From Calditrichia bacterium (lineage in GTDB: Bacteria; Calditrichota; Calditrichia; Calditrichales; Calditrichaceae): 28,079 nucleotides of DNA. Positions within the stretch are counted from its first letter, which is position 1. Each line of letters starts with the position of its first letter. Positions 3,014 to 23,519 of the stretch are shown one piece after another. Where the stretch lies: NCBI GenBank assembly GCA_026983775.1, contig JALSTK010000174.1, positions 1-28,079 on the forward strand, written 5' to 3'. Below the pieces are notes generated by a model. The model was not told where the DNA came from, did no database searches, and worked only from the letters and a program-made list of their open reading frames with translations. The position numbers were made by a program, and so were the translations under genes.

Positions 3014-4981
3014 TTATAAATATAAACGCAGACCGAATTTCGTAATAGACAATTCAGGGTCTTTCAGTTTATTCAACAGTTCCATGTGCTTAAAATACTT
3101 CAAATCTTTAAGGTGATTGATATAGTTTATCAGGGTAACATCGCCCATTAGAGGATCGATCTGAATAAAGCCTTCTATATCTATCTGATAGGTATAGTCG
3201 TTGTGGAACGAACTACCTTTTGTGTTTTGTGTATTTGCTGTTAGCTTGATAAACTGGATTTTATTCAGGTGAATATTTCTCGGAGTTTCATTACTGAATA
3301 GTCGTAAGACCTGAATAATATAGGGCTTACTCTTAACATATCCTTTTAATTCCTGATTCTTTTTATTGATAACTGCAATTTGTTGCAAAACTTCTTTATA
3401 TTTTTTCTCGATAGGATTCAGATTTGAGTACTCCGTCCTATATTTCTCTGCCAGACTTTGTTTATCAAGGATAATGGCTTTTTGGCGTACCGAAAGATAA
3501 CCTAAGCCGAAAAACAGGACAATGATGATAGTAATCAGCAGATAATTCAGTTTACGCAAAACAAAACGGGATTTGTAAGAGGCAGGTAATAAATTGAATA
3601 CCGGACGCTCTTGTAAGACAGTGCCGATGGTAGAAAAGAAACCGGAATATTCAATGGTACGTTTATCCAAATCCACAAATTGCGGAGTTAAAACAAACAT
3701 AGGCATGGAAAGACGTCCCTTCAGATAGGGCAAAAGGCTTTCCTTTCGGATCCCATAACCGGTTATGAAGATACGTTCGATATATTGCTGGACATTTCTA
3801 CCCTGGATATAGGCCAGGGAACGCAGTATTTCCGAGAAAAATGTGTGCAGCACCGGATTTTGTTTGCTCTTCAAATCCTTTATTTTATCCAGCAAGCGGC
3901 TTCTCAGCTGTGAAGGCTTCTCCACGCGATCATTACTCTCTTTTTCCCCTTCCCCTTTACTATCCATTTTCAAGGCCTGATCACGAATCGTTACCTCCAG
4001 ATTACGGGACCCGATACTGACATTACGGATCATCTCCAACTCGCCATTTTTCAGGTAACACATCTGGGTAAGATCGTAAGCGATATCGATTAATAAATCA
4101 CGATCCGGACGAAAAACCATACGCCGGTAAGTTCCTTGCAAAGCGGCCGGTCTTGGGATCAAAGTTTTCAGTTCTAATTTGGCGTTATTAAAAATATTGA
4201 CATAATAGGAAATAACTTCTTCGGGAACCGCTACAATCATAAGCCGGTACTTTTCAATACCCTCACTGCTGAGTTCATCTAATATTTCATAATTCCAAAC
4301 AGACTTTTCATCAAAATTCTTTAAATCATCGATATTCTTATTGTAGATAGCCTGTTTTAGATCGGCCGTCTTATTCATTTTAGGAAATATAACCTGACGA
4401 ATCGATATCTCGGGACTGAAAATACTGGCCGTTACATCCATCCCTCTTTTGTAGACTTTTGATTTAACATTTTCCAGGGCAATCTGTAAAGCCTTGCGCC
4501 GATCCCGCTCTTCGGATGGAAATTTTTGTATACCCCATTTTATAACCTGAATATCTTCTCCGGCTTTTCTGACCACCACGTATCGAATTTTATCCGGATC
4601 CAGGTCCAACGCCAAATGCCATCTGGAATTAAGACGTTTAAAAAACGGTAGTTTCTCATAGAATCGATCGTAGAGGTAGATCCGTTGTTTCTGAACAGGC
4701 TTTACCTTCATTGGAGGTGCCGTCCGGTTACCGGAGGACGACGGTCTGACAGGTTTCTTCCCGGGCGGCGCCGATTTTGGATGCTTTTTAGCGGCTGTTG
4801 GTATAGTTGCTTTATTCGAAGAAGATGCTGCTTTTTTCACTCCTGCAGTCTTCTTCTGCTTCGCTGCCCGATCCGTAGGGATCACTTTATTTTGCGGTTT
4901 TTTCGGCTTTGGGATATTTTTATTTTCCTTGTCCATGTTCATGGGAATATTCGTATGCTTTAATGTTTGGTAATTTTCCAT
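3014..4981 (-). CDS. pilM: PilM-PilN fusion protein with a K/P/A-rich N-terminal extension
   Basis: 655 aa. The first ~100 residues are low-complexity (KKPQNKVIPTDRAAKQKKTAGVKKAASS...). The next region is an actin-like PilM fold (LALDLDPDKIRYVVV, IDIAYDLTQMCYLKNGELEMIRNVSIGSRNL, ITGYGIRKESLLPYL). After that comes the PilN hallmark FNLLPASYKSR, a TM helix (LLITIIIVLFFGLGYL), a coiled coil and a periplasmic domain. The start is ATG at 4981, with alternative ATGs at 4942 and 4936. Confidence 0.8.
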   Translation of the reverse strand: MENYQTLKHTNIPMNMDKENKNIPKPKKPQNKVIPTDRAAKQKKTAGVKKAASSSNKATIPTAAKKHPKSAPPGKKPVRPSSSGNRTAPPMKVKPVQKQRIYLYDRFYEKLPFFKRLNSRWHLALDLDPDKIRYVVVRKAGEDIQVIKWGIQKFPSEERDRRKALQIALENVKSKVYKRGMDVTASIFSPEISIRQVIFPKMNKTADLKQAIYNKNIDDLKNFDEKSVWNYEILDELSSEGIEKYRLMIVAVPEEVISYYVNIFNNAKLELKTLIPRPAALQGTYRRMVFRPDRDLLIDIAYDLTQMCYLKNGELEMIRNVSIGSRNLEVTIRDQALKMDSKGEGEKESNDRVEKPSQLRSRLLDKIKDLKSKQNPVLHTFFSEILRSLAYIQGRNVQQYIERIFITGYGIRKESLLPYLKGRLSMPMFVLTPQFVDLDKRTIEYSGFFSTIGTVLQERPVFNLLPASYKSRFVLRKLNYLLITIIIVLFFGLGYLSVRQKAIILDKQSLAEKYRTEYSNLNPIEKKYKEVLQQIAVINKKNQELKGYVKSKPYIIQVLRLFSNETPRNIHLNKIQFIKLTANTQNTKGSSFHNDYTYQIDIEGFIQIDPLMGDVTLINYINHLKDLKYFKHMELLNKLKDPELSITKFGLRLYL

Positions 4982-10311: not shown

Positions 10312-12603
10312 CTATATCAGCTTAAATTCAGGTTCGGAATTATTACTTTTGGGTTGAACAGATGGCTGCGGAGGTGGAGTTTGGGAGGAAAGCCCACTCG
10401 GTTCCGAGGGGGCGGACAAGCCCCTTTTCCCTAATACCTTCTTAACTCTGGCAATTAAAACTTTACTTTTGATAGGCTTGGTTAGATAATCTTCGGCTCC
10501 TAAGTCCAATCCTTTCACTTCATCATCCGCTTCTTTTAAACCGGTCAGCATCAATACGGGAATGGAACGGGTCTTCGGATCAGACTTTAGATGCTGTAAC
10601 AGTTCATAACCGTCCATACGCGGCATCATAATATCCAGCAAAATAAGGGTGGGCAGGTCTTTTTTAATTTTATCCAGGGCCTGCACCCCGTCTTCGGCCT
10701 CCGTCACCTGCCAGGGTGTATTTTTCTCAATAATTTTGCGAAGCATCATCCGTGAAACTTTATAATCTTCGACGATCATAATTTTAATCTTATCACTTTT
10801 TTTATCCGCAACAGCCGATTGAGCCAGAACGGGTTTTATCGGATCGGCATTAACGGCAGGCGATATTCCCTTATTTTCTGCGGAGCTCGTATCTTTTTCA
10901 TGGCCATCACTTTCCCCCATATTGATGGTACGCAAGACCTCTTTATAGTCGGTAATACCGTCGGCAACCAGCGAAAGCGCATCCTCAAATAAGTTGCGAA
11001 AGCCGTTCTTCTTGGCCAGGGCTCTAAGTTCCGTCAGGGAAGCTCCGGCATTTATCTTATCCTTTATTTGATGGTCTAAAATAAGAATTTCGTAAACTCC
11101 TACCCGACCTTTATACCCCGTATATCCGCATTTTTTACAACCTTTGGCCTCATAAACCTGTGGATTGTCATGCATCTGGTTCACCATATAGTGCAGTTTC
11201 GGATCGATTTGATCCGTTTCCACCCTGGTTTTACATACAGGACATAATTTGCGTACCAGACGCTGGGCTATAATGGCTTGCAGAGATTCGGTAATTTTGA
11301 ATTTATCGACGCCCATATCGCGCAGACGGGTTATGGTTCCGAACGTATCATTGGTATGAAGCGTACTTAATACCAGATGCCCGGTTTGGGCAGCCTGGAT
11401 GGCAATTTCCGCCGTCTCATTATCCCGGATTTCACCGACTAATATCACATCCGGATCCTGACGTAGAAAGGAACGCAGAGCGCTGGCAAAGGTTACCCCG
11501 GCTTTTACATTAACCTGCACCTGATTGATTCCGTCCATAACATATTCTACCGGGTCTTCCACGGTAAGGATATTGTTGGCTGTCGATTTGATGCGGTTAA
11601 TGGCTGCATAAAGGGTGGTACTTTTACCGGAGCCGGTCGGCCCCGTAACCAACACCATACCCTGACGGAAGGAAAAGCACTGTTCCAGCAGGCCGCGGTT
11701 TACGCCACGGATTCCCATCTGATCGAAGGAAACGGCCGCCTTACGTTTGTCCAAAACACGGATTACGGCTTTTTCACCGAAACTGGTTGGTAAAATCGAT
11801 ACACGCAGATCGATATCTGCCTTTCCCACATAAATCTTTGCTTTTCCGTCTTGCGGCTTTCGCGTCTCCGCTATGTTCAAATCCGATATAATCTTAATAC
11901 GACTCATCAGGCTGGGATGAATGGTCTTGGGAATTTCCATCAAATTACGTAGTACACCGTCGATACGGATACGCACATGGGCGGATTTCTCTTTCGGTTC
12001 AATATGAATGTCACTGGCCCCATCATCTACCGCATCCGCTAAGATCTGATTGACCAGCTTGACCACCGGTGCCGGATTAGAATCGTTCTCCTCGCCGGGA
12101 ATTCGTACTTTTGAACGCTGATGATGGCTGCCCACCAGAGAATTAATTAATTTATCCGGTGAATAGTATGTATCGATTTTTTCTTCGATTTTATCTCTAT
12201 AGGCAAAATAGGTTTTCACATATTTGCCGGTAGCCGTCTCGATTTCGCGTTCGCAATCCAGATTTGACGGACTAAAACTGGCAATGAAGATTTGCTTATC
12301 CGTCATACTAAAGGGAATGAACAGATATTTCCTGCAAAGTTTTTCCGGAATTATTTTAATAACCTGGGGATCGATTTTGGTCTGATCCAGATCGACCGAT
12401 GGAATATTAAGCGCATTTTGCACAAATTCCGCAATATCCTCGGCCAGCAGGTAATTGTTTTCAACCAGAATATCGAAAAAATACGTTCTATCCGAAAAAC
12501 GCTGGGCTAATTCACCATACAGGGATTCATCAATGATCTGATAATAAATAAGGGCTTTTACTAACCAATCGTCGAAAAAAACGTGCGTATTTGTTATTGC
12601 CAT
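10312..12603 (-). CDS. pilB: Type IV pilus extension ATPase PilB (GspE family) fused to a C-terminal response-regulator receiver domain
   Basis: Residues 1-150 are a T2SSE_N-like domain. The ATPase core carries Walker A (GPTGSGKSTTLYA), the Asp box (VGEIRD), the His box and a tetracysteine cluster (CPVCKT...CKKCGYTG). A linker (SAENKGISPAVNADPIKPV) is followed by a CheY-like domain (IKIMIVEDYKVSR...LILLDIMMPRMDGYELL...VLMLTG...YLTKP). Confidence 0.85.
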   Translation of the reverse strand: MAITNTHVFFDDWLVKALIYYQIIDESLYGELAQRFSDRTYFFDILVENNYLLAEDIAEFVQNALNIPSVDLDQTKIDPQVIKIIPEKLCRKYLFIPFSMTDKQIFIASFSPSNLDCEREIETATGKYVKTYFAYRDKIEEKIDTYYSPDKLINSLVGSHHQRSKVRIPGEENDSNPAPVVKLVNQILADAVDDGASDIHIEPKEKSAHVRIRIDGVLRNLMEIPKTIHPSLMSRIKIISDLNIAETRKPQDGKAKIYVGKADIDLRVSILPTSFGEKAVIRVLDKRKAAVSFDQMGIRGVNRGLLEQCFSFRQGMVLVTGPTGSGKSTTLYAAINRIKSTANNILTVEDPVEYVMDGINQVQVNVKAGVTFASALRSFLRQDPDVILVGEIRDNETAEIAIQAAQTGHLVLSTLHTNDTFGTITRLRDMGVDKFKITESLQAIIAQRLVRKLCPVCKTRVETDQIDPKLHYMVNQMHDNPQVYEAKGCKKCGYTGYKGRVGVYEILILDHQIKDKINAGASLTELRALAKKNGFRNLFEDALSLVADGITDYKEVLRTINMGESDGHEKDTSSAENKGISPAVNADPIKPVLAQSAVADKKSDKIKIMIVEDYKVSRMMLRKIIEKNTPWQVTEAEDGVQALDKIKKDLPTLILLDIMMPRMDGYELLQHLKSDPKTRSIPVLMLTGLKEADDEVKGLDLGAEDYLTKPIKSKVLIARVKKVLGKRGLSAPSEPSGLSSQTPPPQPSVQPKSNNSEPEFKLI

Positions 12604-12772
12604 AATTCCACTAAATTCTATTTATTAAATCATTCGCTAATTTTCTGTATTTAGTAGAATTATCGTAGGATTTGGTCAGAACCTTAGGGAAAAATTAGAA
12701 ATCGGTAAAATAAGCGGTTTAAAAAAACGACTTTATAAGAGCATTCCAGTAACGCATATCACACAAGTCATT

Positions 12773-14614
12773 TTATCTCCAGCGCCAGACTCCCGGACGG
12801 CGTGGACGACGGGCCTTATCCTCAGACTTAACCAGAACTACCGGCGGTTCTTTTGCCTTCGCTGTACGGACTGCCGGATAAAATTTCTTACGAAGCGTCG
12901 GATCGATACGGAATGCTTTTTCCGCTGCACGGATAATTTCCGGCCGTAATCCTTCCGAAGCAATGGTTTCCGTATATTTGCGACGCCCGTCTACCAATTC
13001 CTTAATATAAAAATCGATTTCTTCCTGAGAATAGAACTTGTGTACATCATATTCATCCAAAGGTCGCCCTTCCACGGCAGCGATGGACAGCGTTCCCAGA
13101 ATTCCGGGTGTATAGGTGTTTGTTCCCCGTAAATCACCCCGTTGAATGGCGGCCATAAGGCTTAAGGGAACCCGGTCGGTCTTTCGTACCATTCTCTTTC
13201 TGGCAATACCGTTCTCCAGGGAAGTTTCAATGATCTCGCCCATGCCTCCCGTATTATACATCATGAAACGAACTTTTCCCGGATACTTGTTGACCAGGGC
13301 CATCACGATATCATAAAATCGATTGACTTTTCTGCCTCGTGATCCGATTATGAAGGGATCGGTACCCACAATCCGCACGGACTCACCGGCGTGTTCGGGA
13401 TTGGAAGCATAGCTGTGGGTAGACTCCCCCCAGAGATAGGCCAAAACACCTTGCTCGGGCGTTAATTGCTGGGCAAAAGGCATGATCGTATTTCGTCTGG
13501 TAATAAAGGCGAAAATCAGGCCGTCCATCTCATCCAATGTAGGCAAATTAACCGTCGGGGCACTAATGCCCTTCAGCTTACCATCCTGTTTCACTTTAAG
13601 CTGGTTGCGAAAGACAACCGCCCTTCCGTTTCCGCACAAACTTTCGTCAAGGAAGTCGATCTCACCTTGGTAGTTCATCATCAAATTTTCAAGAAGAGCC
13701 GATTTATGGATTAAAGCGTTGTACATGGCTTCCTGCTGGTCGGCACGTACATCCGTTTTGACATAAAAATTATTTTCCGATCCCAGGGCGGAACCATCAT
13801 CCCGCAGGAATACGATATCATCCTGACAAACTTCCGTTTTCTCACCTCGCTCATTATCGAGTCCCAGTTGATGACAGGACCAGGTGGATTTACCGGTAGC
13901 GGTCATACCGAACAGGAAAACACCGTATTTTTTGACACGATTTTCCCTTGGATCGCGCACGGTTACAATTTTCGAACCGGAGTGAAGACCCAACATATCC
14001 TGTTCATCGGCACGCCACATGGCCTGGCGTAAAAAACCTTTTTTATTTTCACCGAGGTAATCGGTACCCATGGCTATATTCAAATTATATTCGGGTAAGG
14101 ATAAAATCTGCGCCCGGATGGGATGTTCTTCGGGGATATGAATCATGATGAATTCCGGTCCGGGACGGGAAGAAGGATCGAACATGGTATTGGCCCACAT
14201 ATAGGCATTGCGGATATTTTTGGGGTCCGATACGGACATATATAAATCACAAACGGGATTATAATACGGGTTATGGCCCATCTGCCGCTTTATATGCACA
14301 AAAGGCAGAGTCCGCATCAAATGTAATACTTTTTCCAACTCCTGTTCCGATTGTTTAATAATTTGAATATGACTATCGAGGGGTTTGGGCAGACGTACCT
14401 TTTCACTTCCGAGATAAACCGTTTTCGGCGCTAAGCGACTCGATATTTTAGAAGTCCACATATAGGAACCATACCGGCTTTTTCGGGCAAATTTTTTCGC
14501 TTCTTTTTCCAAAAAGGACATATCAACCGTTTTAACATTCTTTCCATTTAACAACGGGAGTAATTCGTTATAAAATTTTCGATAGTAGGCTTCGTTGTAT
14601 AGCGAGGCGCTCAT
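12773..14614 (-). CDS. Phosphoenolpyruvate carboxykinase (ATP)-like protein
   Basis: LHSGSKIV...VFLFGMTATGKSTWS...DDIVFLRDDG...NNFYVKTD matches the PckA kinase-1a P-loop (FFGLSGTGKTTLS) and its flanking motifs. At 613 aa it is longer than typical PckA, with an extra N-terminal region and a basic C-terminal tail. Confidence 0.6.
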   Translation of the reverse strand: MSASLYNEAYYRKFYNELLPLLNGKNVKTVDMSFLEKEAKKFARKSRYGSYMWTSKISSRLAPKTVYLGSEKVRLPKPLDSHIQIIKQSEQELEKVLHLMRTLPFVHIKRQMGHNPYYNPVCDLYMSVSDPKNIRNAYMWANTMFDPSSRPGPEFIMIHIPEEHPIRAQILSLPEYNLNIAMGTDYLGENKKGFLRQAMWRADEQDMLGLHSGSKIVTVRDPRENRVKKYGVFLFGMTATGKSTWSCHQLGLDNERGEKTEVCQDDIVFLRDDGSALGSENNFYVKTDVRADQQEAMYNALIHKSALLENLMMNYQGEIDFLDESLCGNGRAVVFRNQLKVKQDGKLKGISAPTVNLPTLDEMDGLIFAFITRRNTIMPFAQQLTPEQGVLAYLWGESTHSYASNPEHAGESVRIVGTDPFIIGSRGRKVNRFYDIVMALVNKYPGKVRFMMYNTGGMGEIIETSLENGIARKRMVRKTDRVPLSLMAAIQRGDLRGTNTYTPGILGTLSIAAVEGRPLDEYDVHKFYSQEEIDFYIKELVDGRRKYTETIASEGLRPEIIRAAEKAFRIDPTLRKKFYPAVRTAKAKEPPVVLVKSEDKARRPRRPGVWRWR

Positions 14615-19031: not shown

Positions 19032-19204
19032 TTTGAGTATATCTCCTTTCGTTTTTTTTATCTTTAGAATCTATCCACTCCTAGTAATTACCCACTTACT
19101 TATTTCTTATAGCCCCGTTTCAGTTGGCTTACTAAAAATTAAACGGAGAGGATTTCTACCTCAAAAAAAAGCAATACAACTAAAAATTGGCATAAGAAAG
19201 AATC

Positions 19205-19977
19205 CATGACCTCTGACCGAGCGGATGTCGGGCACGCATGGATGCGCGGAACGGGATATTTTAATGAAACTCACAAAGCTCACAAAGTATAAAAAAGTCT
19301 GATAAAAACCTTTGTGCTCTTGGTGACCTTTGTGGTATAAATTAAACCCTGTAGAGAAAAGATTTTGACGGAAACTAAGAAACACACAAAGCTCACAAAG
19401 TGCACAAAGTATAAATTGTGCGTAGTGCGATGAATACATGCCAAAGGGACAGGCGGTATCCTTTCTTACCCAATCAGTCTCTTGAGCGAAACGCGCCGTT
19501 TCTTTCTCATCCAGAAATAGCGGCATTTCACTCTTCCATGCCTTCAAAAATCCCCTCTGACCGACCGGATGTCGGTCACCCCGTAAGAGCGCATAGATGC
19601 TCTGAACGGGATATTTTAATGAATCACACAAAGCACACAAAGTACACAGAGAATAAAAAAGTCAGAAAAAAACCTTTGTGCTCTTGGTGACCTTTGTGGT
19701 ATAAATTTGGCCTCTGTAGAGAAAATATTTTGACGGAAACTAAGAAACACACAAAGCTCACAAAGTGCACAAAGTATAAATTGTGCGTAGTGCGATGAAT
19801 ACATGCCAAAGGGACAGGCGGTCTCCCTACACACACAATCAGTCTCTTGAGCGAAACGTGCCGCTTCTTTCTCATCCAGAAATAGCGGCATTTCACCCTT
19901 CCATGCATTCTATAATCCCCTCTGACCGACCGGATGTCGGGCATCCCGCCGGAGCGCATGGATGCGCGTGGCGGGGT
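19205..19977. repeat. Tandem direct repeat: two units of about 344 and 365 bp plus the start of a third, each beginning with a CRISPR-repeat-like half site
   Basis: Units begin at about 19211, 19555 and 19920 with (aat)cccctctgaccga(c/g)cggatgtcgg. The unit bodies are near-identical and each carries 5 CACAAAG and 2 CTTTGTG heptamers. The third unit merges into the terminal CRISPR repeat. Confidence 0.8.
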
Positions 19978-20452
19978 GAATAACGGGGTATTTTTCTACT
20001 GTGAGCACCGATACGATATACCGGAATCTGCGCAAGCGGTCTCAATCCCCTCTGAATAACGGGGTATTTTTCTACGAAAGAAGCAATCCGCGATCATTTT
20101 CGTATCCAAGAAACGAGTCTCAATCCCCTCTGAATAACGGGGTATTTTTCTACCAGGGTCTTGTTGACGTTGTAATCGTGGACGATTTTGTCTCAATCCC
20201 CTCTGAATAACGGGGTATTTTTCTACTTAATCAATCGGTGGACGGTTTCAGGCAAACAACGTCTCAATCCCCTCTGAATAACGGGGTATTTTTCTACAAG
20301 TTCAAGTTCAACTTCGGAAGGACACCTGCTATCTCTATGTCTCAATCCCCTCTGAATAACGGGGTATTTTTCTACACGGTATAAAATACGAATGTAAGTA
20401 TCTGCATTCGAGCAGGTCTCAATCCCCTCTGAATAACGGGGTATTTTTCTAC
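19978..20452 (-). CRISPR. CRISPR array: 6 full 37-nt repeats plus a disrupted terminal repeat
   Basis: The repeat on the + strand is gtctcaatcccctctgaataacggggtatttttctac. Full copies lie at 20039-20075, 20117-20153, 20190-20226, 20261-20297, 20339-20375 and 20416-20452, with a 3-prime fragment at 19978-19999. Spacers are 39, 41, 36, 34, 41 and 40 nt, all unique. The repeat has an internal hairpin CCCC...GGGG. In minus orientation it ends ...GATTGAGAC, a type I/III-like 8-nt handle, and the leader abuts cas2, so transcription is on the minus strand. Confidence 0.9.
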
Positions 20453-20706
20453 TCCTCAGGATCCGTGCCTTGCAGCCCAGGGGCTCGTGCTATGCAAATT
20501 ATGCCTGGTATGAAATTTTTACCTCTTGACCTGCTCATTTCCAAGAAATTCATCCTAAGTTATTGTTTTTTATGACGGACGATGGACTTTTTTATCTAAC
20601 TCATTGTTTCTATAAAAATTAGCATACATCTGATCCAGAACGACAATTCTGCCGTACTTTTACCCTTCCTTTTCTGGAATGTACACATTATTTTCGCTTT
20701 TTGCAA
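20453..20706 (-). promoter_or_regulatory. CRISPR leader (AT-rich) between cas2 and the first repeat
   Basis: ~250-nt non-coding AT-rich segment bounded by the cas2 stop (20707) and the most recently added repeat (20452). Confidence 0.5.
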
Positions 20707-21021
20707 TCATAAGAGAACTAATTGCGGTTCCTCATACACCTCCCCGTATCCCAAAATTTCGATACGGGTGACCTCCTTCTGCGCAAGGCGATAAAACCGA
20801 ACACTGTCTTTTTCTTCATCGATTTCCCGGGCAATTTTCAATTTTAATTCCTGCAATTGGCCGGAATCGAGATAACATTCAAAGACACTCTTCTGGGTAT
20901 GTTGGCCATAGCCTTTTAATAGCTTCATAATCCGTGTACGGGAACGGTTATCCACAATATCATAGGCTATGATAACATATTCTCTATCTATGGACATATC
21001 CCGCATATTCACTTTCCTCAT
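20707..21021 (-). CDS. cas2: CRISPR-associated endoribonuclease Cas2
   Basis: YVIIAYDIVDNRSRTRIMKLLKGYGQHTQKSVFECYL is the Cas2 signature. In-frame ATGs lie at 21021, 21006 and 20997. The 20997 start would give a 14-nt overlap with cas1. Confidence 0.85.
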   Translation of the reverse strand: MRKVNMRDMSIDREYVIIAYDIVDNRSRTRIMKLLKGYGQHTQKSVFECYLDSGQLQELKLKIAREIDEEKDSVRFYRLAQKEVTRIEILGYGEVYEEPQLVLL

Positions 21022-21961
21022 CTTTTAAATAACGCATAAAATGCCATACCTGACGTTCAATGATCTGCAGGAAATTTAATTTCATATTTTTATAACTGAA
21101 TTTTTCACCTATTTTCTTACGATATTGATTAAAAAAGATATGTAAACCTTCTTTATTGAAAATAGTGGAATCCTTTTCTTTTAAAAAATGGTCGGCTTTA
21201 ATCTGCTTTGTATTAATCAGGTGTATGACCAGAGTATCCGCCACAGGCGCCCGAAATTCTTCCATTAAATCGCTTACCAGAGCCGGATGACCGTATTTTA
21301 ATTCATGAAAAAACCCACAATAAGGGTCTAAACCCGAAGCTTCTACAAAAGCATATACATTATTGAACAACATCGTGTAAGCCAGGGAGAGTAAAATATT
21401 CAATGGATCCGGCGGAGGATGCTTCAGACGTTTTTTAAATCCGAAATCCTCGATAAGCAAAGCCGGTAGATTTCTGAAATAGATATTGGAAAAGCTTCCT
21501 TCAAAACCCCGTATCTGGTCAAGAGTCGAGGCAACTTTCAGGCTACGCAGCATATTATCCTGTTTTTCCCGAAAAGTTTGATAAACCACATCCGATTTCT
21601 TTTTTAGCATACGGCCATAATTGATTGTTTTGGCGCGAATAACCTGACGGCTGAAATGTAATCTAAATTCCGCGTCACGAAGCTTTTCATACTGTAGCCG
21701 GCGAATGTAAACATTAGGGGAAAGCGGCGGGCTTAAACGCCCCTTATATCGTCCATCCATACTTAAAAAGGCTATATCGATATTCTTAGCAAGACAATAG
21801 CCGGTTAAGGCAGCGCTTACTTCCACCCTACCCATAATGATAATCAGAGAAAGATTATTCATGGGTTGGACATATATTTTTTTACCTTCTTTATACAAAA
21901 CAATCTGCCCGCCGGTTTTACTTAAACGGGAGCCCTGTTCACTCACTACGATGACACTCAT
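20984..21961 (-). CDS. cas1: CRISPR-associated integrase Cas1
   Basis: 325 aa with conserved Cas1 blocks: GFEG..., DPLNILLSLAYTML, GLDPYCGFFH and ALVSDLMEEFR. It overlaps cas2. Confidence 0.9.
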   Translation of the reverse strand: MSVIVVSEQGSRLSKTGGQIVLYKEGKKIYVQPMNNLSLIIIMGRVEVSAALTGYCLAKNIDIAFLSMDGRYKGRLSPPLSPNVYIRRLQYEKLRDAEFRLHFSRQVIRAKTINYGRMLKKKSDVVYQTFREKQDNMLRSLKVASTLDQIRGFEGSFSNIYFRNLPALLIEDFGFKKRLKHPPPDPLNILLSLAYTMLFNNVYAFVEASGLDPYCGFFHELKYGHPALVSDLMEEFRAPVADTLVIHLINTKQIKADHFLKEKDSTIFNKEGLHIFFNQYRKKIGEKFSYKNMKLNFLQIIERQVWHFMRYLKDEESEYAGYVHR

Positions 21962-22079: not shown

Positions 22080-23519
22080 TTATTTTTGTTCGGCTAGAAC
22101 AGGCAATACGAAATGAAAGTGTTTATATTCGGTATTTAATATGGTAAGCGCTAACGCGGACACTTCCTTTTTATACGATGCCCGGGTGCTAATCCATACT
22201 TCGTCAAACAATAAAAAATAAATCCGGCCGTGTTCGCCTTCTTCCACCAAACCGGCATCTAATTTGATTATAGCATGATTAAAAAAATCGGCGGCACTGC
22301 CCTGAATAAGTCGATTCATTATTTTTCCGCTTAGATTCGGTTCCTTCTTATCCAGAGGTATTTTACGGCCCATTACAGTTTCTACAACGCCCGTCTGATT
22401 ATATTTCATCCATAACTCGGCCCGCAATTCATCCAGGGCCGGAAGTAATTTCCAAAAGAAAGGGCCGGGTTTAAAATCCGGCCGGCGCGGGCCGCCATTA
22501 ATCAGACTGTTCAAGAAGCGTTTGGCAACGCCGCGTCCCTCAGGATTAATTGCCAAATAAATATCCTGTTCTGGAATATCAGCCAGGCTGATCAAATGTT
22601 CATCGAGCAGAATGTTTAACAAAATCATAGGTTCTATGCTTTTATAATCATAAATAAGCAATTCCTTATCCGGCGGTTTAAGACTTTGCAACCTTTTTGC
22701 AGAAGGCCAGGTTTGTATGCCGGGATTGCGGTAGGTTATCCTTCCGGTAGCCGGGCCAATATTCAGTTGTGGGAAAACAAGTTGTCCTTCGATCCACAAG
22801 CCGTGTCGTTCCAATTTGTCTACCACTAAGTCTAATGCAGTTAAAGTTTTAATAGGTTCACGATTAATTTGCAAAGGCACTTTAGGCCTTATTTTTTTCA
22901 AAGGTTTTAACAATTCTTGAATCGTTTCGTCCAATTCTTCCGCTCCCCATAGTTTTTCCAGTAATAAAGCGCACTGGCGACGATGATACGGCACGTTGTT
23001 TTCTTCCTTAGTACCCTGATGAAGCAGATCGAGCAGAAAAGCGCGGTCTGTCTCATTACTATTGAAATAGGCATCGACCAACGATTCATAATCGCCGCGT
23101 CCGTAAAAATATAACATATTTTCTTTCATGTTCTGGCAATCTCTTTCGTGAATAATTTTCAGTAATCGCGTACGCAGACGTAAATTTTTATCTTTAAAAC
23201 CGTTAAATAAAATCGATCTGGCCTGAGGATAAGAGGCGCAATAAATCAATAAAGCGGAAAAATCCTGTAAAGAAAATAAATACCGGGCATAATCCTGACC
23301 TTGCAATGCAAGGCCGAGCCGTTCCACCCAAAAGGCGGTTTCCAAACGGATGGAGGCGTCCCGGTCATATAGTAATGGGATGATAACCCGTTTATTTTTA
23401 ATAAGCGAGCTATGTTCCAGCATCTTTTCCAGTTTTAGAAAAGCAAGAGCTTTTTGCCGGTTTTCACGGATAATTGATATTTTCTGTACAATTTGTTCGG
23501 GGGCTTCATTTTCCGGCAT
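22080..23519 (-). CDS. Family-A (Pol I-like) DNA polymerase domain protein: N-terminal helical repeat domain plus a thumbless palm/fingers core, directly upstream of cas1
   Basis: ATGRITYRNPGIQTWP matches Pol I TGRLSSSDPNLQNIP. LIYDYKSIEPM matches motif A (DYSQIELR). GRGVAKRFLNSLINGG is motif B (O-helix) with Arg and Lys retained. NRLIQGSAADFFNHAIIKLD...RIYFLLFDEVWI matches QGTAADI...HDE of motif C. Only about 15 residues separate the GLWIEG block from TGR, where Pol I has a thumb of roughly a hundred residues. No exonuclease motifs were seen. The gene ends 118 nt upstream of cas1 on the same strand. Confidence 0.7.
   Translation of the reverse strand: MPENEAPEQIVQKISIIRENRQKALAFLKLEKMLEHSSLIKNKRVIIPLLYDRDASIRLETAFWVERLGLALQGQDYARYLFSLQDFSALLIYCASYPQARSILFNGFKDKNLRLRTRLLKIIHERDCQNMKENMLYFYGRGDYESLVDAYFNSNETDRAFLLDLLHQGTKEENNVPYHRRQCALLLEKLWGAEELDETIQELLKPLKKIRPKVPLQINREPIKTLTALDLVVDKLERHGLWIEGQLVFPQLNIGPATGRITYRNPGIQTWPSAKRLQSLKPPDKELLIYDYKSIEPMILLNILLDEHLISLADIPEQDIYLAINPEGRGVAKRFLNSLINGGPRRPDFKPGPFFWKLLPALDELRAELWMKYNQTGVVETVMGRKIPLDKKEPNLSGKIMNRLIQGSAADFFNHAIIKLDAGLVEEGEHGRIYFLLFDEVWISTRASYKKEVSALALTILNTEYKHFHFVLPVLAEQK

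Follow-up and report, generated by a model that had tools for sequence, protein, structure and literature searches.

The locus and its CRISPR array

Here, we analyse the distal end of a CRISPR array carried on a 28,079-nucleotide (nt) stretch of DNA from a Calditrichia bacterium (NCBI GenBank assembly GCA_026983775.1, contig JALSTK010000174.1, positions 1 to 28,079 of the forward strand; hereafter, the window). The window is part of a 96.5-kb metagenome contig assembled with MEGAHIT (ENA ERZ27262647 k141_429708). At this end of the array, repeats interrupted by a structured insert alternate with near-identical bodies of about 280 bp, an arrangement that an earlier note on the same DNA had read either as a mobile or structured element that entered a repeat and was then duplicated, or as a pseudo-array with a duplicated sequence in place of spacers.

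The array and its adaptation genes lie on the minus strand. The cas1 gene (20984-21961; TIGR00287, E 4e-77) is followed by cas2 (20707-21021; TIGR01573, E 2e-17) and, between cas2 and the first repeat, by a 254-bp leader (20453-20706). The same leader sequence is present in a second sample (locus L002), and its motif AATAAAAACAATAACTTAG also occurs in the leader of a related locus, L009. A repeat search finds six perfect 37-nt repeats and five spacers of 34-41 nt at 20039-20452 (with a weak match to Rfam CRISPR-DR8), the forward-strand sequence of the repeats being GTCTCAATCCCCTCTGAATAACGGGGTATTTTTCTAC. A sixth spacer of 39 nt (20000-20038), the last normal one, follows repeat 6. Three related loci (L002, L009, and L014) run from cas2 through the leader into the array, with repeats that end in ATTGAGAC. 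Given this order and these repeat ends, together with the minus-strand cas1 and cas2 genes just upstream, we read the array on the minus strand as GTAGAAAAATACCCCGTTATTCAGAGGGGATTGAGAC. It follows that the interrupted repeats sit at the distal, oldest end of the array and, as the earlier note had supposed, that read-through from the leader would place them at the 3' end of the precursor CRISPR RNA (pre-crRNA).

Among the genes upstream of the array is one for an NE0113-family CARF protein and, farther out past the end of the window, one for a fusion of CARF with adenosine deaminase, and cas10, RAMP, and cas6 genes adjoin arrays that have the same repeat core. Together, these point to a type III setting. 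The nearest named homologues of Cas1 are from Calditrichia and Caldithrix, which hints weakly at the taxonomy. The neighbours of the tandem units are cas2, cas1, a gene for a PolA-like protein, and genes for a receiver-like protein of 118 amino acids (aa) and a flotillin.

Split repeats at the end of the array

The seventh repeat (composite 3, 19914-19999, minus strand) consists of a left half, an insert, and a right half. Its left half (19979-19999) is identical to the canonical repeat at 21/21 positions and its right half, TCAGAGGGGATT (19914-19925), at 12/12. The last 5 nt of the repeat, which are the 3' part of its 8-nt handle, differ, so that the handle reads ATTATAGA. The 53-nt insert between the halves (19926-19978) has a GC content of 75% against a local background of 41-42%, and contains two hairpins. 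As 12-nt core matches of this kind occur only 0.03-0.04 times per shuffled trailer, the halves match the repeat better than chance, and the earlier description, in which a structured insert interrupts the loop of the repeat, is borne out. Combined with the CCCC/GGGG stem of the repeat, the insert is predicted to fold into a three-way junction (-34.1 kcal/mol, z -2.3), in which both of the palindromes named in the earlier note are present.

The core of the insert, CTGACCGA(C/G)CGGATGTCGG, occurs in three copies in the window and nowhere else in it, marking two further composites on the minus strand close to where the earlier note had placed them. Composite 2 (19549-19622) has a truncated left core, AAATATCCCGTT, a 41-nt variant of the insert, and the right half TCAGAGGGGATT at 12/12 identity followed by the handle ATTTTTGA. 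Composite 1 (19200-19267) has a truncated left core, a 30-nt variant of the insert, and a right half that is broken up (TCAGAGG+TCAT+GGATT). In both composites the left half is without the first ~8 nt of the repeat, and the left core AAATATCCCGTT is kept at 11/12. The canonical handle ATTGAGAC is changed in all three composites, to ATTATAGA, ATTTTTGA or ATTCTTTC. The terminal composites are thus core-only hybrid repeats, which keep the hairpin core, have lost the 8-nt handle, and hold a GC-rich, two-hairpin insert in the loop.

Beyond composite 1 lies a segment of spacer length (40 nt, 19160-19199, minus strand), with no match elsewhere in the locus, and then a possible last, very degenerate repeat (GTAGAAATCCTCTCCGTTT...AAACGGGGCTATAAGAAAT, 19102-19159, minus strand) that forms a hairpin and matches the left half at 13/21 positions. 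A 13/21 match is weak by itself (0.5 such hits per shuffle), but the sequence starts with GTAGAAA and lies at spacer distance. The composites are where the earlier note had located them, and the feature runs past the left end given there.

The composites belong to the array in that they are contiguous with it, lie on the same strand, and follow repeat 6 after a 39-nt spacer. The segments between them fail as spacers, being ~280 bp long, near-identical, structured, and homologous to the trailer of another array. Split repeats are found at this locus alone, with none among about 190 repeats of the family in eleven fetched loci.

Tandem units and a structured trailer

The starts of the composites are 344 and 365 bp apart, the spacings given in the earlier note, for a total of 2.2 tandem units. 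Units A and B (unit B being the one nearer the leader) are 86% identical by column, or about 92% without indels. On the transcribed strand the whole unit is strongly structured (-125 kcal/mol, z -4.7).

In Cas6-processed arrays, the handle of a CRISPR RNA (crRNA) comes from the repeat upstream of its spacer, so that the last repeat gives an 'extra' RNA with trailer sequence as its guide. In the predicted fold, this would-be guide is covered by a proximal trailer hairpin that starts ~19 nt past the GGGG of the repeat and is found on the minus strand in both units (unit B, 19846-19898, -25.6 kcal/mol, z -4.5; unit A, about 19481-19533, -23.9 kcal/mol, z -3.1). Next along the same strand comes a short trailer motif, CGCTCAAGAGACTGATTG(G) in unit B (19836-19853) and CGCTCAAGAGACTGATTGG in unit A (19470-19488). 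The motif is also present in the trailer of L014, 60-63 nt from GGGGATT; the unit A copy matches it at 19/19 positions (score 38, against 16.5 +/- 2.4 for shuffles).

Farther along the minus strand, each unit contains a long hairpin of ~100 nt (unit B, 19672-19774, -32.7 kcal/mol, z -4.35; unit A, 19308-19409, -32.3 kcal/mol, z -4.76), built of three 9-nt CTTTGTG units, a 45-nt apex, and three CACAAAG units. In unit B it is followed by a U-run at 19652-19671, UUUUUUUCUGACUUUUUU (with a run of seven U), and then by the 5' arm of a second such module; in unit A a shorter U-run, UUUUUAU, follows. Both units thus have a stable hairpin with an immediate U-run on the transcribed strand, as a terminator would. 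The stem is not the short, GC-rich one with a small loop that is typical of terminators, but is ~29 bp long and A/U-rich, with the 45-nt apex.

A run of 96 nt (19727-19822) is identical between the two units (P about 4e-5 at their mean divergence). The two long hairpins differ at six columns (five substitutions and a 1-nt indel), all of them in the apex, and both arms are unchanged. Set against the indel-bearing composites, the identical run and the unchanged arms point to constraint, or to recent gene conversion, acting on the trailer and not on the insert. No hairpin module occurs elsewhere in the 28 kb, no trailer match was found in plasmids or phages, and a search of IMG/VR with three motifs returned nothing. 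Scored as a possible decayed repeat, the apex of the long hairpin reaches just the shuffle mean, and the idea was discarded. No anti-repeat was found in the body, where the observed duplex is weaker than in shuffles.

The bodies give no sign of coding: there is no Pfam hit, the open frames differ between the units, and the single frame shared by both shows 6 non-synonymous against 2 synonymous changes. The open reading frames (ORFs) of the body were rejected as protein genes on the grounds of the missing Pfam hit, the differing frames, and the nature of their sole database 'homologue', P0246, a translated tandem repeat described below. By sequence comparison, we identify the 280-bp bodies as the array's own trailer, neither spacers nor coding DNA.

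Comparison with related arrays

Scanning JGI (Joint Genome Institute) metagenomes with the repeat core gave eight arrays, of which only L013 and L014 reach into the trailer. L014 has 45 repeats; it shares the 29-nt repeat core with the window array but differs from it in leader and in cas1. No insert splits its terminal repeat, which ends at GGGGATT. The first 60 nt after this repeat have no sequence similarity to the window, yet they are predicted to form a hairpin (z -2.8), and the 19-nt trailer motif lies 63 nt from GGGGATT in L014 versus 60 nt in the window.

The comparison extends farther through a predicted protein. Searched against 1.84 billion protein representatives, a body ORF has one real hit, P0246 (301 aa), an ORF starting at L014 7387. 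The N-terminus of P0246 is the L014 trailer translated from its ATG, and the remainder consists of at least 6 tandem hairpin modules of ~125 nt in shifting frames, each followed by a phenylalanine-rich stretch (a T-run). We interpret P0246 as a spurious ORF in public protein collections, kept open across shifting frames. Since the motif and the modules are shared with L014, the bodies of the window are copies of a trailer common to two arrays, which tells against the duplicated-spacer pseudo-array that the earlier note had offered as one option. The copies of the module in L014, seen through P0246, suggest that the hairpin module itself tends to amplify in tandem.

At L009, whose Cas1 is 54% identical, two units of ~185 bp close the array (12690-13075), each combining a core-only repeat, its handle changed, with ~150 nt bounded by inverted heptamer arrays (GAATTAC/GAATTAA ... 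GTAATTC); the ends of the units are conserved and the central ~70 nt unrelated. The sequence of these units is unrelated to the window trailer, and the idea that they share its fold was dropped as unsupported (z -0.2 to -1.6). The hairpin over the pseudo-guide is weaker in L013 (z -1.4) and L024 (z -1.2). The terminal repeats of L009, L013, L014, and L024 all diverge right after GGGGAT(T) and have a changed handle. L024 also provides, at 12040-12400, an ordinary array with a duplicated two-spacer block, an example of duplication by misalignment. Relatives of the 118-aa gene downstream of the window array do not lie beside any CRISPR array.

Triplets of CTTTGTG with a 9-nt period in 47 viral contigs were considered as homologues of the long hairpin and set aside, as the similarity is confined to the short repeats. 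One viral contig, L030 (IMG/VR UViG_3300033064_002338), has four dispersed copies of three CTTTGTG units at a 9-nt period (at 3637, 4211, 6437, and 13457) with the conserved flanks GCCGT.ACCC ... GGCA.GCCGTT, which resemble a repeated protein-binding site and are unrelated to the window beyond the short repeat. Separately, solitary copies of the repeat core occur outside arrays at L021 4644-4662 (UViG_3300033150_000652, classed as viral) and at L015 1330-1366, the latter equal to the L019 repeat except for the last base. Such solitary copies may be units of mobile elements.

Apparent decay of the insert and the search for mobility

The three inserts differ in length, with composite 3 having 12 nt more than composite 2 and composite 1 lacking 11 nt. 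The 11-nt deletion in composite 1 takes away the 3' strand of the outer stem, and its fold is no better than those of shuffles (z +0.33). The earlier note had held that compensatory changes keep the second palindrome paired. In the three-copy alignment, each helix of the insert has one pair-breaking change instead, and covariation is at chance level (260/500 shuffles reach the observed value). One double change in the alignment hinges on an ambiguous stretch of it, and the second palindrome as it stands in composite 2 comes from a shift in register following a single substitution. The insert copies look like decay rather than maintenance.

As for mobility, the insert has no terminal inverted repeats (its ends, CCCCGCC... 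and ...CCGGTCGG, are not inverted copies of each other, and the repeat search gave no inverted pair), and no integrase, transposase, or other recombinase is found among the neighbouring genes. In composite 3 the insert has the trinucleotide TCA at each end; a duplication of 3 nt has a chance of 1/64, and microhomology is an alternative source. There are no further copies of the insert in ~33 kb of the contig or in the 25 loci fetched, nor in IMG/VR, plasmids, or phages, and the insert pattern, searched in one genome per GTDB species, gave two chance hits only, inside GC-rich coding DNA. Rfam 15, at E up to 10, recognises the canonical repeats (CRISPR-DR8) and gives no credible match in either the composites or the bodies, neither tRNA nor tmRNA was found with ARAGORN, and a hammerhead-like junction, judged by eye, was rejected as its junction strands do not fit. 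The insert thus shows no recognisable sign of being a mobile element, and the suggestion of a MITE-like one finds no support in the collections searched.

Origin of the array end

We propose, with modest confidence, that this feature is the old, recombination-scrambled end of a type III-associated array, that nothing marks it as a mobile element, and that its bodies are not spacers. After a single origin of the insert, two repeats that both carried it, one on either side of a lone trailer copy, would have misaligned or crossed over unequally within the insert and so duplicated a block of 'repeat plus trailer', in the same process by which spacer-repeat units are duplicated. One crossover within the insert would yield the pattern of halves that we observe, with composite 3 having a canonical left and a good right half, composite 2 a truncated left and a good right half, and composite 1 a truncated left and a damaged right half. 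The insertion followed by duplication that the earlier note envisaged is therefore kept as regards the tandem duplication of the composite with the DNA that follows it, and given up as regards its origin in a mobile element.

A read-through pre-crRNA from this array would first meet a terminal repeat with a mutated handle, then a stable hairpin that would bury the would-be guide of the 'extra' crRNA, and last a 100-nt hairpin and U-run that would end transcription before the next gene. On this model, the trailer probably ends transcription of the array and probably spares the effector a useless guide supplied by the last repeat. We infer that the trailer, and not the insert, is the part under constraint. 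The insert copies are decaying and probably without a selected role, the split and duplicated repeats being by-products, and the insert at most stops Cas6 from using the terminal repeat.

Several points weigh against this proposal. The trailer is visible in only two or three related loci, and that of L014 is known past its first 88 nt only through a translated ORF. L013, with the same repeat core, and L024, with a different repeat, end plainly. The tandem region is present in one metagenome assembly only. The long hairpin is unlike a textbook intrinsic terminator, and a consensus scan did not call it. Termination, Cas6 cleavage, and the suppression of an extra crRNA are all inferred. A structured insert of 75% GC, present in three copies in a region of 41% GC, could mean that it is the insert that is under selection. 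Finally, tandem site-specific integration of a small circle predicts the same pattern of halves; this is disfavoured by the homology of the body to the native trailer of an array with an unsplit repeat, and by the lack of a recombinase.

Alternative explanations

Could the array end instead be a selected RNA module? On such a reading, which we consider rather unlikely, the insert would itself be functional, for instance by blocking or redirecting Cas6 at the terminal repeat or by stopping an exonuclease, and the whole device would suppress extraneous crRNAs and insulate the downstream genes. In its general form, arrays of this type III repeat family (probably from Calditrichota-like bacteria) would end in a dedicated, selected module composed of core-only repeats with mutated handles (in the window with a structured insert in the loop as well), a hairpin over the would-be guide, the conserved 19-nt motif at its set spacing, and hairpin/U-run units of 125 nt in tandem, and to this we give the same low credence. 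Such a module would prevent the extraneous crRNA from being made and loaded, and would end read-through. The GC-rich structured insert is found in all three copies, strong proximal hairpins occur in both the window and L014 despite the absence of sequence similarity, the conserved motif keeps its distance from the terminal repeat, tandem modules stand behind two arrays that differ in leader and cas1 type, and there is a precedent in type II systems (PMC12080349). The hairpins of the insert are nonetheless eroding, through indels and broken pairs (z +0.33 in composite 1), the insert is absent from the terminal repeat of L014 and from all other related repeats, and L013 ends plainly in spite of sharing the repeat core. 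Less probable still is a regulatory mini-array producing crRNA-like RNAs in the manner of CreA/CreR, or a set of tandem small-RNA genes with a promoter and terminator in each unit, from which a guide-like or hairpin RNA would be released. The mini-array would be made up of composite 1, the 40-nt segment, and the last degenerate repeat. The 40-nt gap between composite 1 and the further repeat-like sequence is of spacer length, with the second repeat a weak one (13/21), promoter-like sites lie on the minus strand at 19809-19780, 19444-19415, and 19285-19258, and the 96-nt identical block spans one such site together with the 5' arm of the hairpin. Promoter-like sites are, however, as many as chance would give (4 found versus 3.5 in shuffles), and the pseudo-spacers have no complementary target in ~33 kb, their best matches of 10-14 nt being at chance level. 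The body has no anti-repeat and the handles are mutated. Moreover, the regulatory mini-arrays that have been published are of types I and V; mini-arrays beside type III arrays were assessed as degraded (PMC10120712).

That a small non-autonomous element or circular cassette integrates into repeat loops, with the composites as its attachment sites attL, attP, and attR, we regard as very unlikely. The order of the halves does fit attL-element-attP-element-attR, a duplicated TCA bounds the composite 3 insert, and the base composition of the insert is foreign to its surroundings. Unequal crossover yields the same pattern, however, and a 3-nt duplication arises by chance at 1/64. An element of this kind would also have to be reconciled with an insert that lacks terminal inverted repeats, with the absence of an integrase or transposase nearby and of another copy in any collection searched, and with a body that has its homologue in the native trailer of an array with an unsplit terminal repeat. 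We can all but dismiss a mis-joined or over-expanded repeat introduced by the metagenome assembler. It is true that the tandem region stands in one MEGAHIT contig only and that the contigs of the second sample break at the first repeat and at 19165. Against this, the units differ at 14% of columns, indels included, the k-mer that the name k141_429708 implies exceeds their longest stretch of identity (96 nt), the second sample bears out the flanks at 100% identity, and tandem modules of the same kind occur in an independent contig. In that second sample (SRR7968113), the contig with the downstream gene stops exactly at 19165/19166, beside a run of eight T and just short of the last degenerate repeat. 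The break, where no repeated 31-mer occurs, may reflect strain heterogeneity.

Relation to known systems

Clusters of repetitive extragenic palindromic (REP) sequences and bacterial interspersed mosaic elements (BIMEs) are short repeats in alternating orientation that form tandem hairpins at the 3' end of transcription units, and operons that rely on antitermination end in tandem terminators, such as rrnB T1-T2. The window shares with them tandem hairpins made from short repeats in alternating orientation. Unlike them, its modules are not dispersed and are seen only behind two CRISPR arrays.

An array end of the kind we favour has a close counterpart in degenerate terminal repeats, for which polymorphism at the 3' end and duplication by replication misalignment have been reviewed (PMC8047081). 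As in those cases, the last repeats of the window diverge 3' of GGGGAT(T), as do those of four related arrays, and repeat-bounded blocks are duplicated in tandem. In the window, by contrast, a structured insert of 53 nt interrupts the loop of the repeat, and what is duplicated in the place of a 'spacer' is a structured trailer of 280 bp, not a segment of 35-40 nt. Repeat-like mini-arrays next to type III arrays have been judged to be probably degraded repeats (Shmakov et al. 2023, PMC10120712). They and the window have in common degenerate repeat-like sequences just outside an array, with no detectable target, whereas that survey describes no loop insertions, 350-bp units, or trailers shared between arrays. 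CreTA and CreR systems (PMC8501985, PMC9458426, bioRxiv 10.1101/2023.03.10.532045) likewise have degenerate repeats flanking a segment of spacer length, but the window locus yielded neither a promoter target with a partial match nor a toxin gene, and the known cases depend on DNA-binding effectors of types I or V.

For the possible function of the trailer, the nearest comparison is with type II-C systems, in which mutation of the extra repeat, a terminator, and a guide-sequestering hairpin suppress extraneous crRNAs (Feussner et al. 2025, PMC12080349). That study also gives a case involving a leader hairpin in type II-A, and describes the other CRISPR types as unexplored in this respect. Judged by sequence and predicted structure, the window has counterparts of all three devices. 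It differs in CRISPR type, in that its array is processed by Cas6, with no trans-activating crRNA (tracrRNA), and in that the extra repeat lies at the trailer end.

Neighbouring genes

Directly upstream of cas1-cas2 in five loci, whose Cas1 proteins are 54-100% identical, lies a gene for a protein of 467-514 aa with the palm and fingers of a family A DNA polymerase (window 22080-23519, minus strand; L007 8491-9945; L008 6107-7651; L009 8539-10023; L011 8532-9935), usually preceded by a TPR gene. The protein matches Pfam DNA_pol_A (E 3e-15) and PADLOC 'RTasPolA' (E 4e-12), with weak matches to Klenow fragment structures in the PDB, and it may be a polymerase dedicated to spacer acquisition. A brief literature search found no description of such a protein upstream of cas1-cas2.

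A fusion of a CARF (NE0113) domain with an adenosine deaminase, followed by a NUDIX hydrolase, is encoded upstream of the adaptation genes at L001 145-2864 (on the same contig, just past the right end of the window) and at L007 510-3255. We take this fusion to resemble a type III accessory effector of the Cad1 type. The window also encodes, at 10312-12603 on the minus strand, a secretion ATPase of the PilB/GspE type (763 aa) with a C-terminal response-regulator receiver domain.

Significance

If the array end is a worn and duplicated one, as we propose, it is a clear example of the decay of a CRISPR array at its old end. It also serves as a warning that array finders and ORF callers misread such ends, the 301-aa 'protein' being a tandem hairpin repeat. 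The split repeat is, in addition, a natural test of the tolerance of Cas6 for a large insertion in the loop.

Should the trailer be functional, it would make testable how Cas6-processed arrays of types I and III deal with the 'extra' crRNA of their last repeat and with the end of transcription. The mechanisms against extra crRNAs reported so far are from types II-A and II-C, and if a dedicated module did exist here, it would be without a described precedent among Cas6-processed arrays. Degenerate and duplicated trailer ends are already known; the shared structured trailer is a lead on how type III arrays end.

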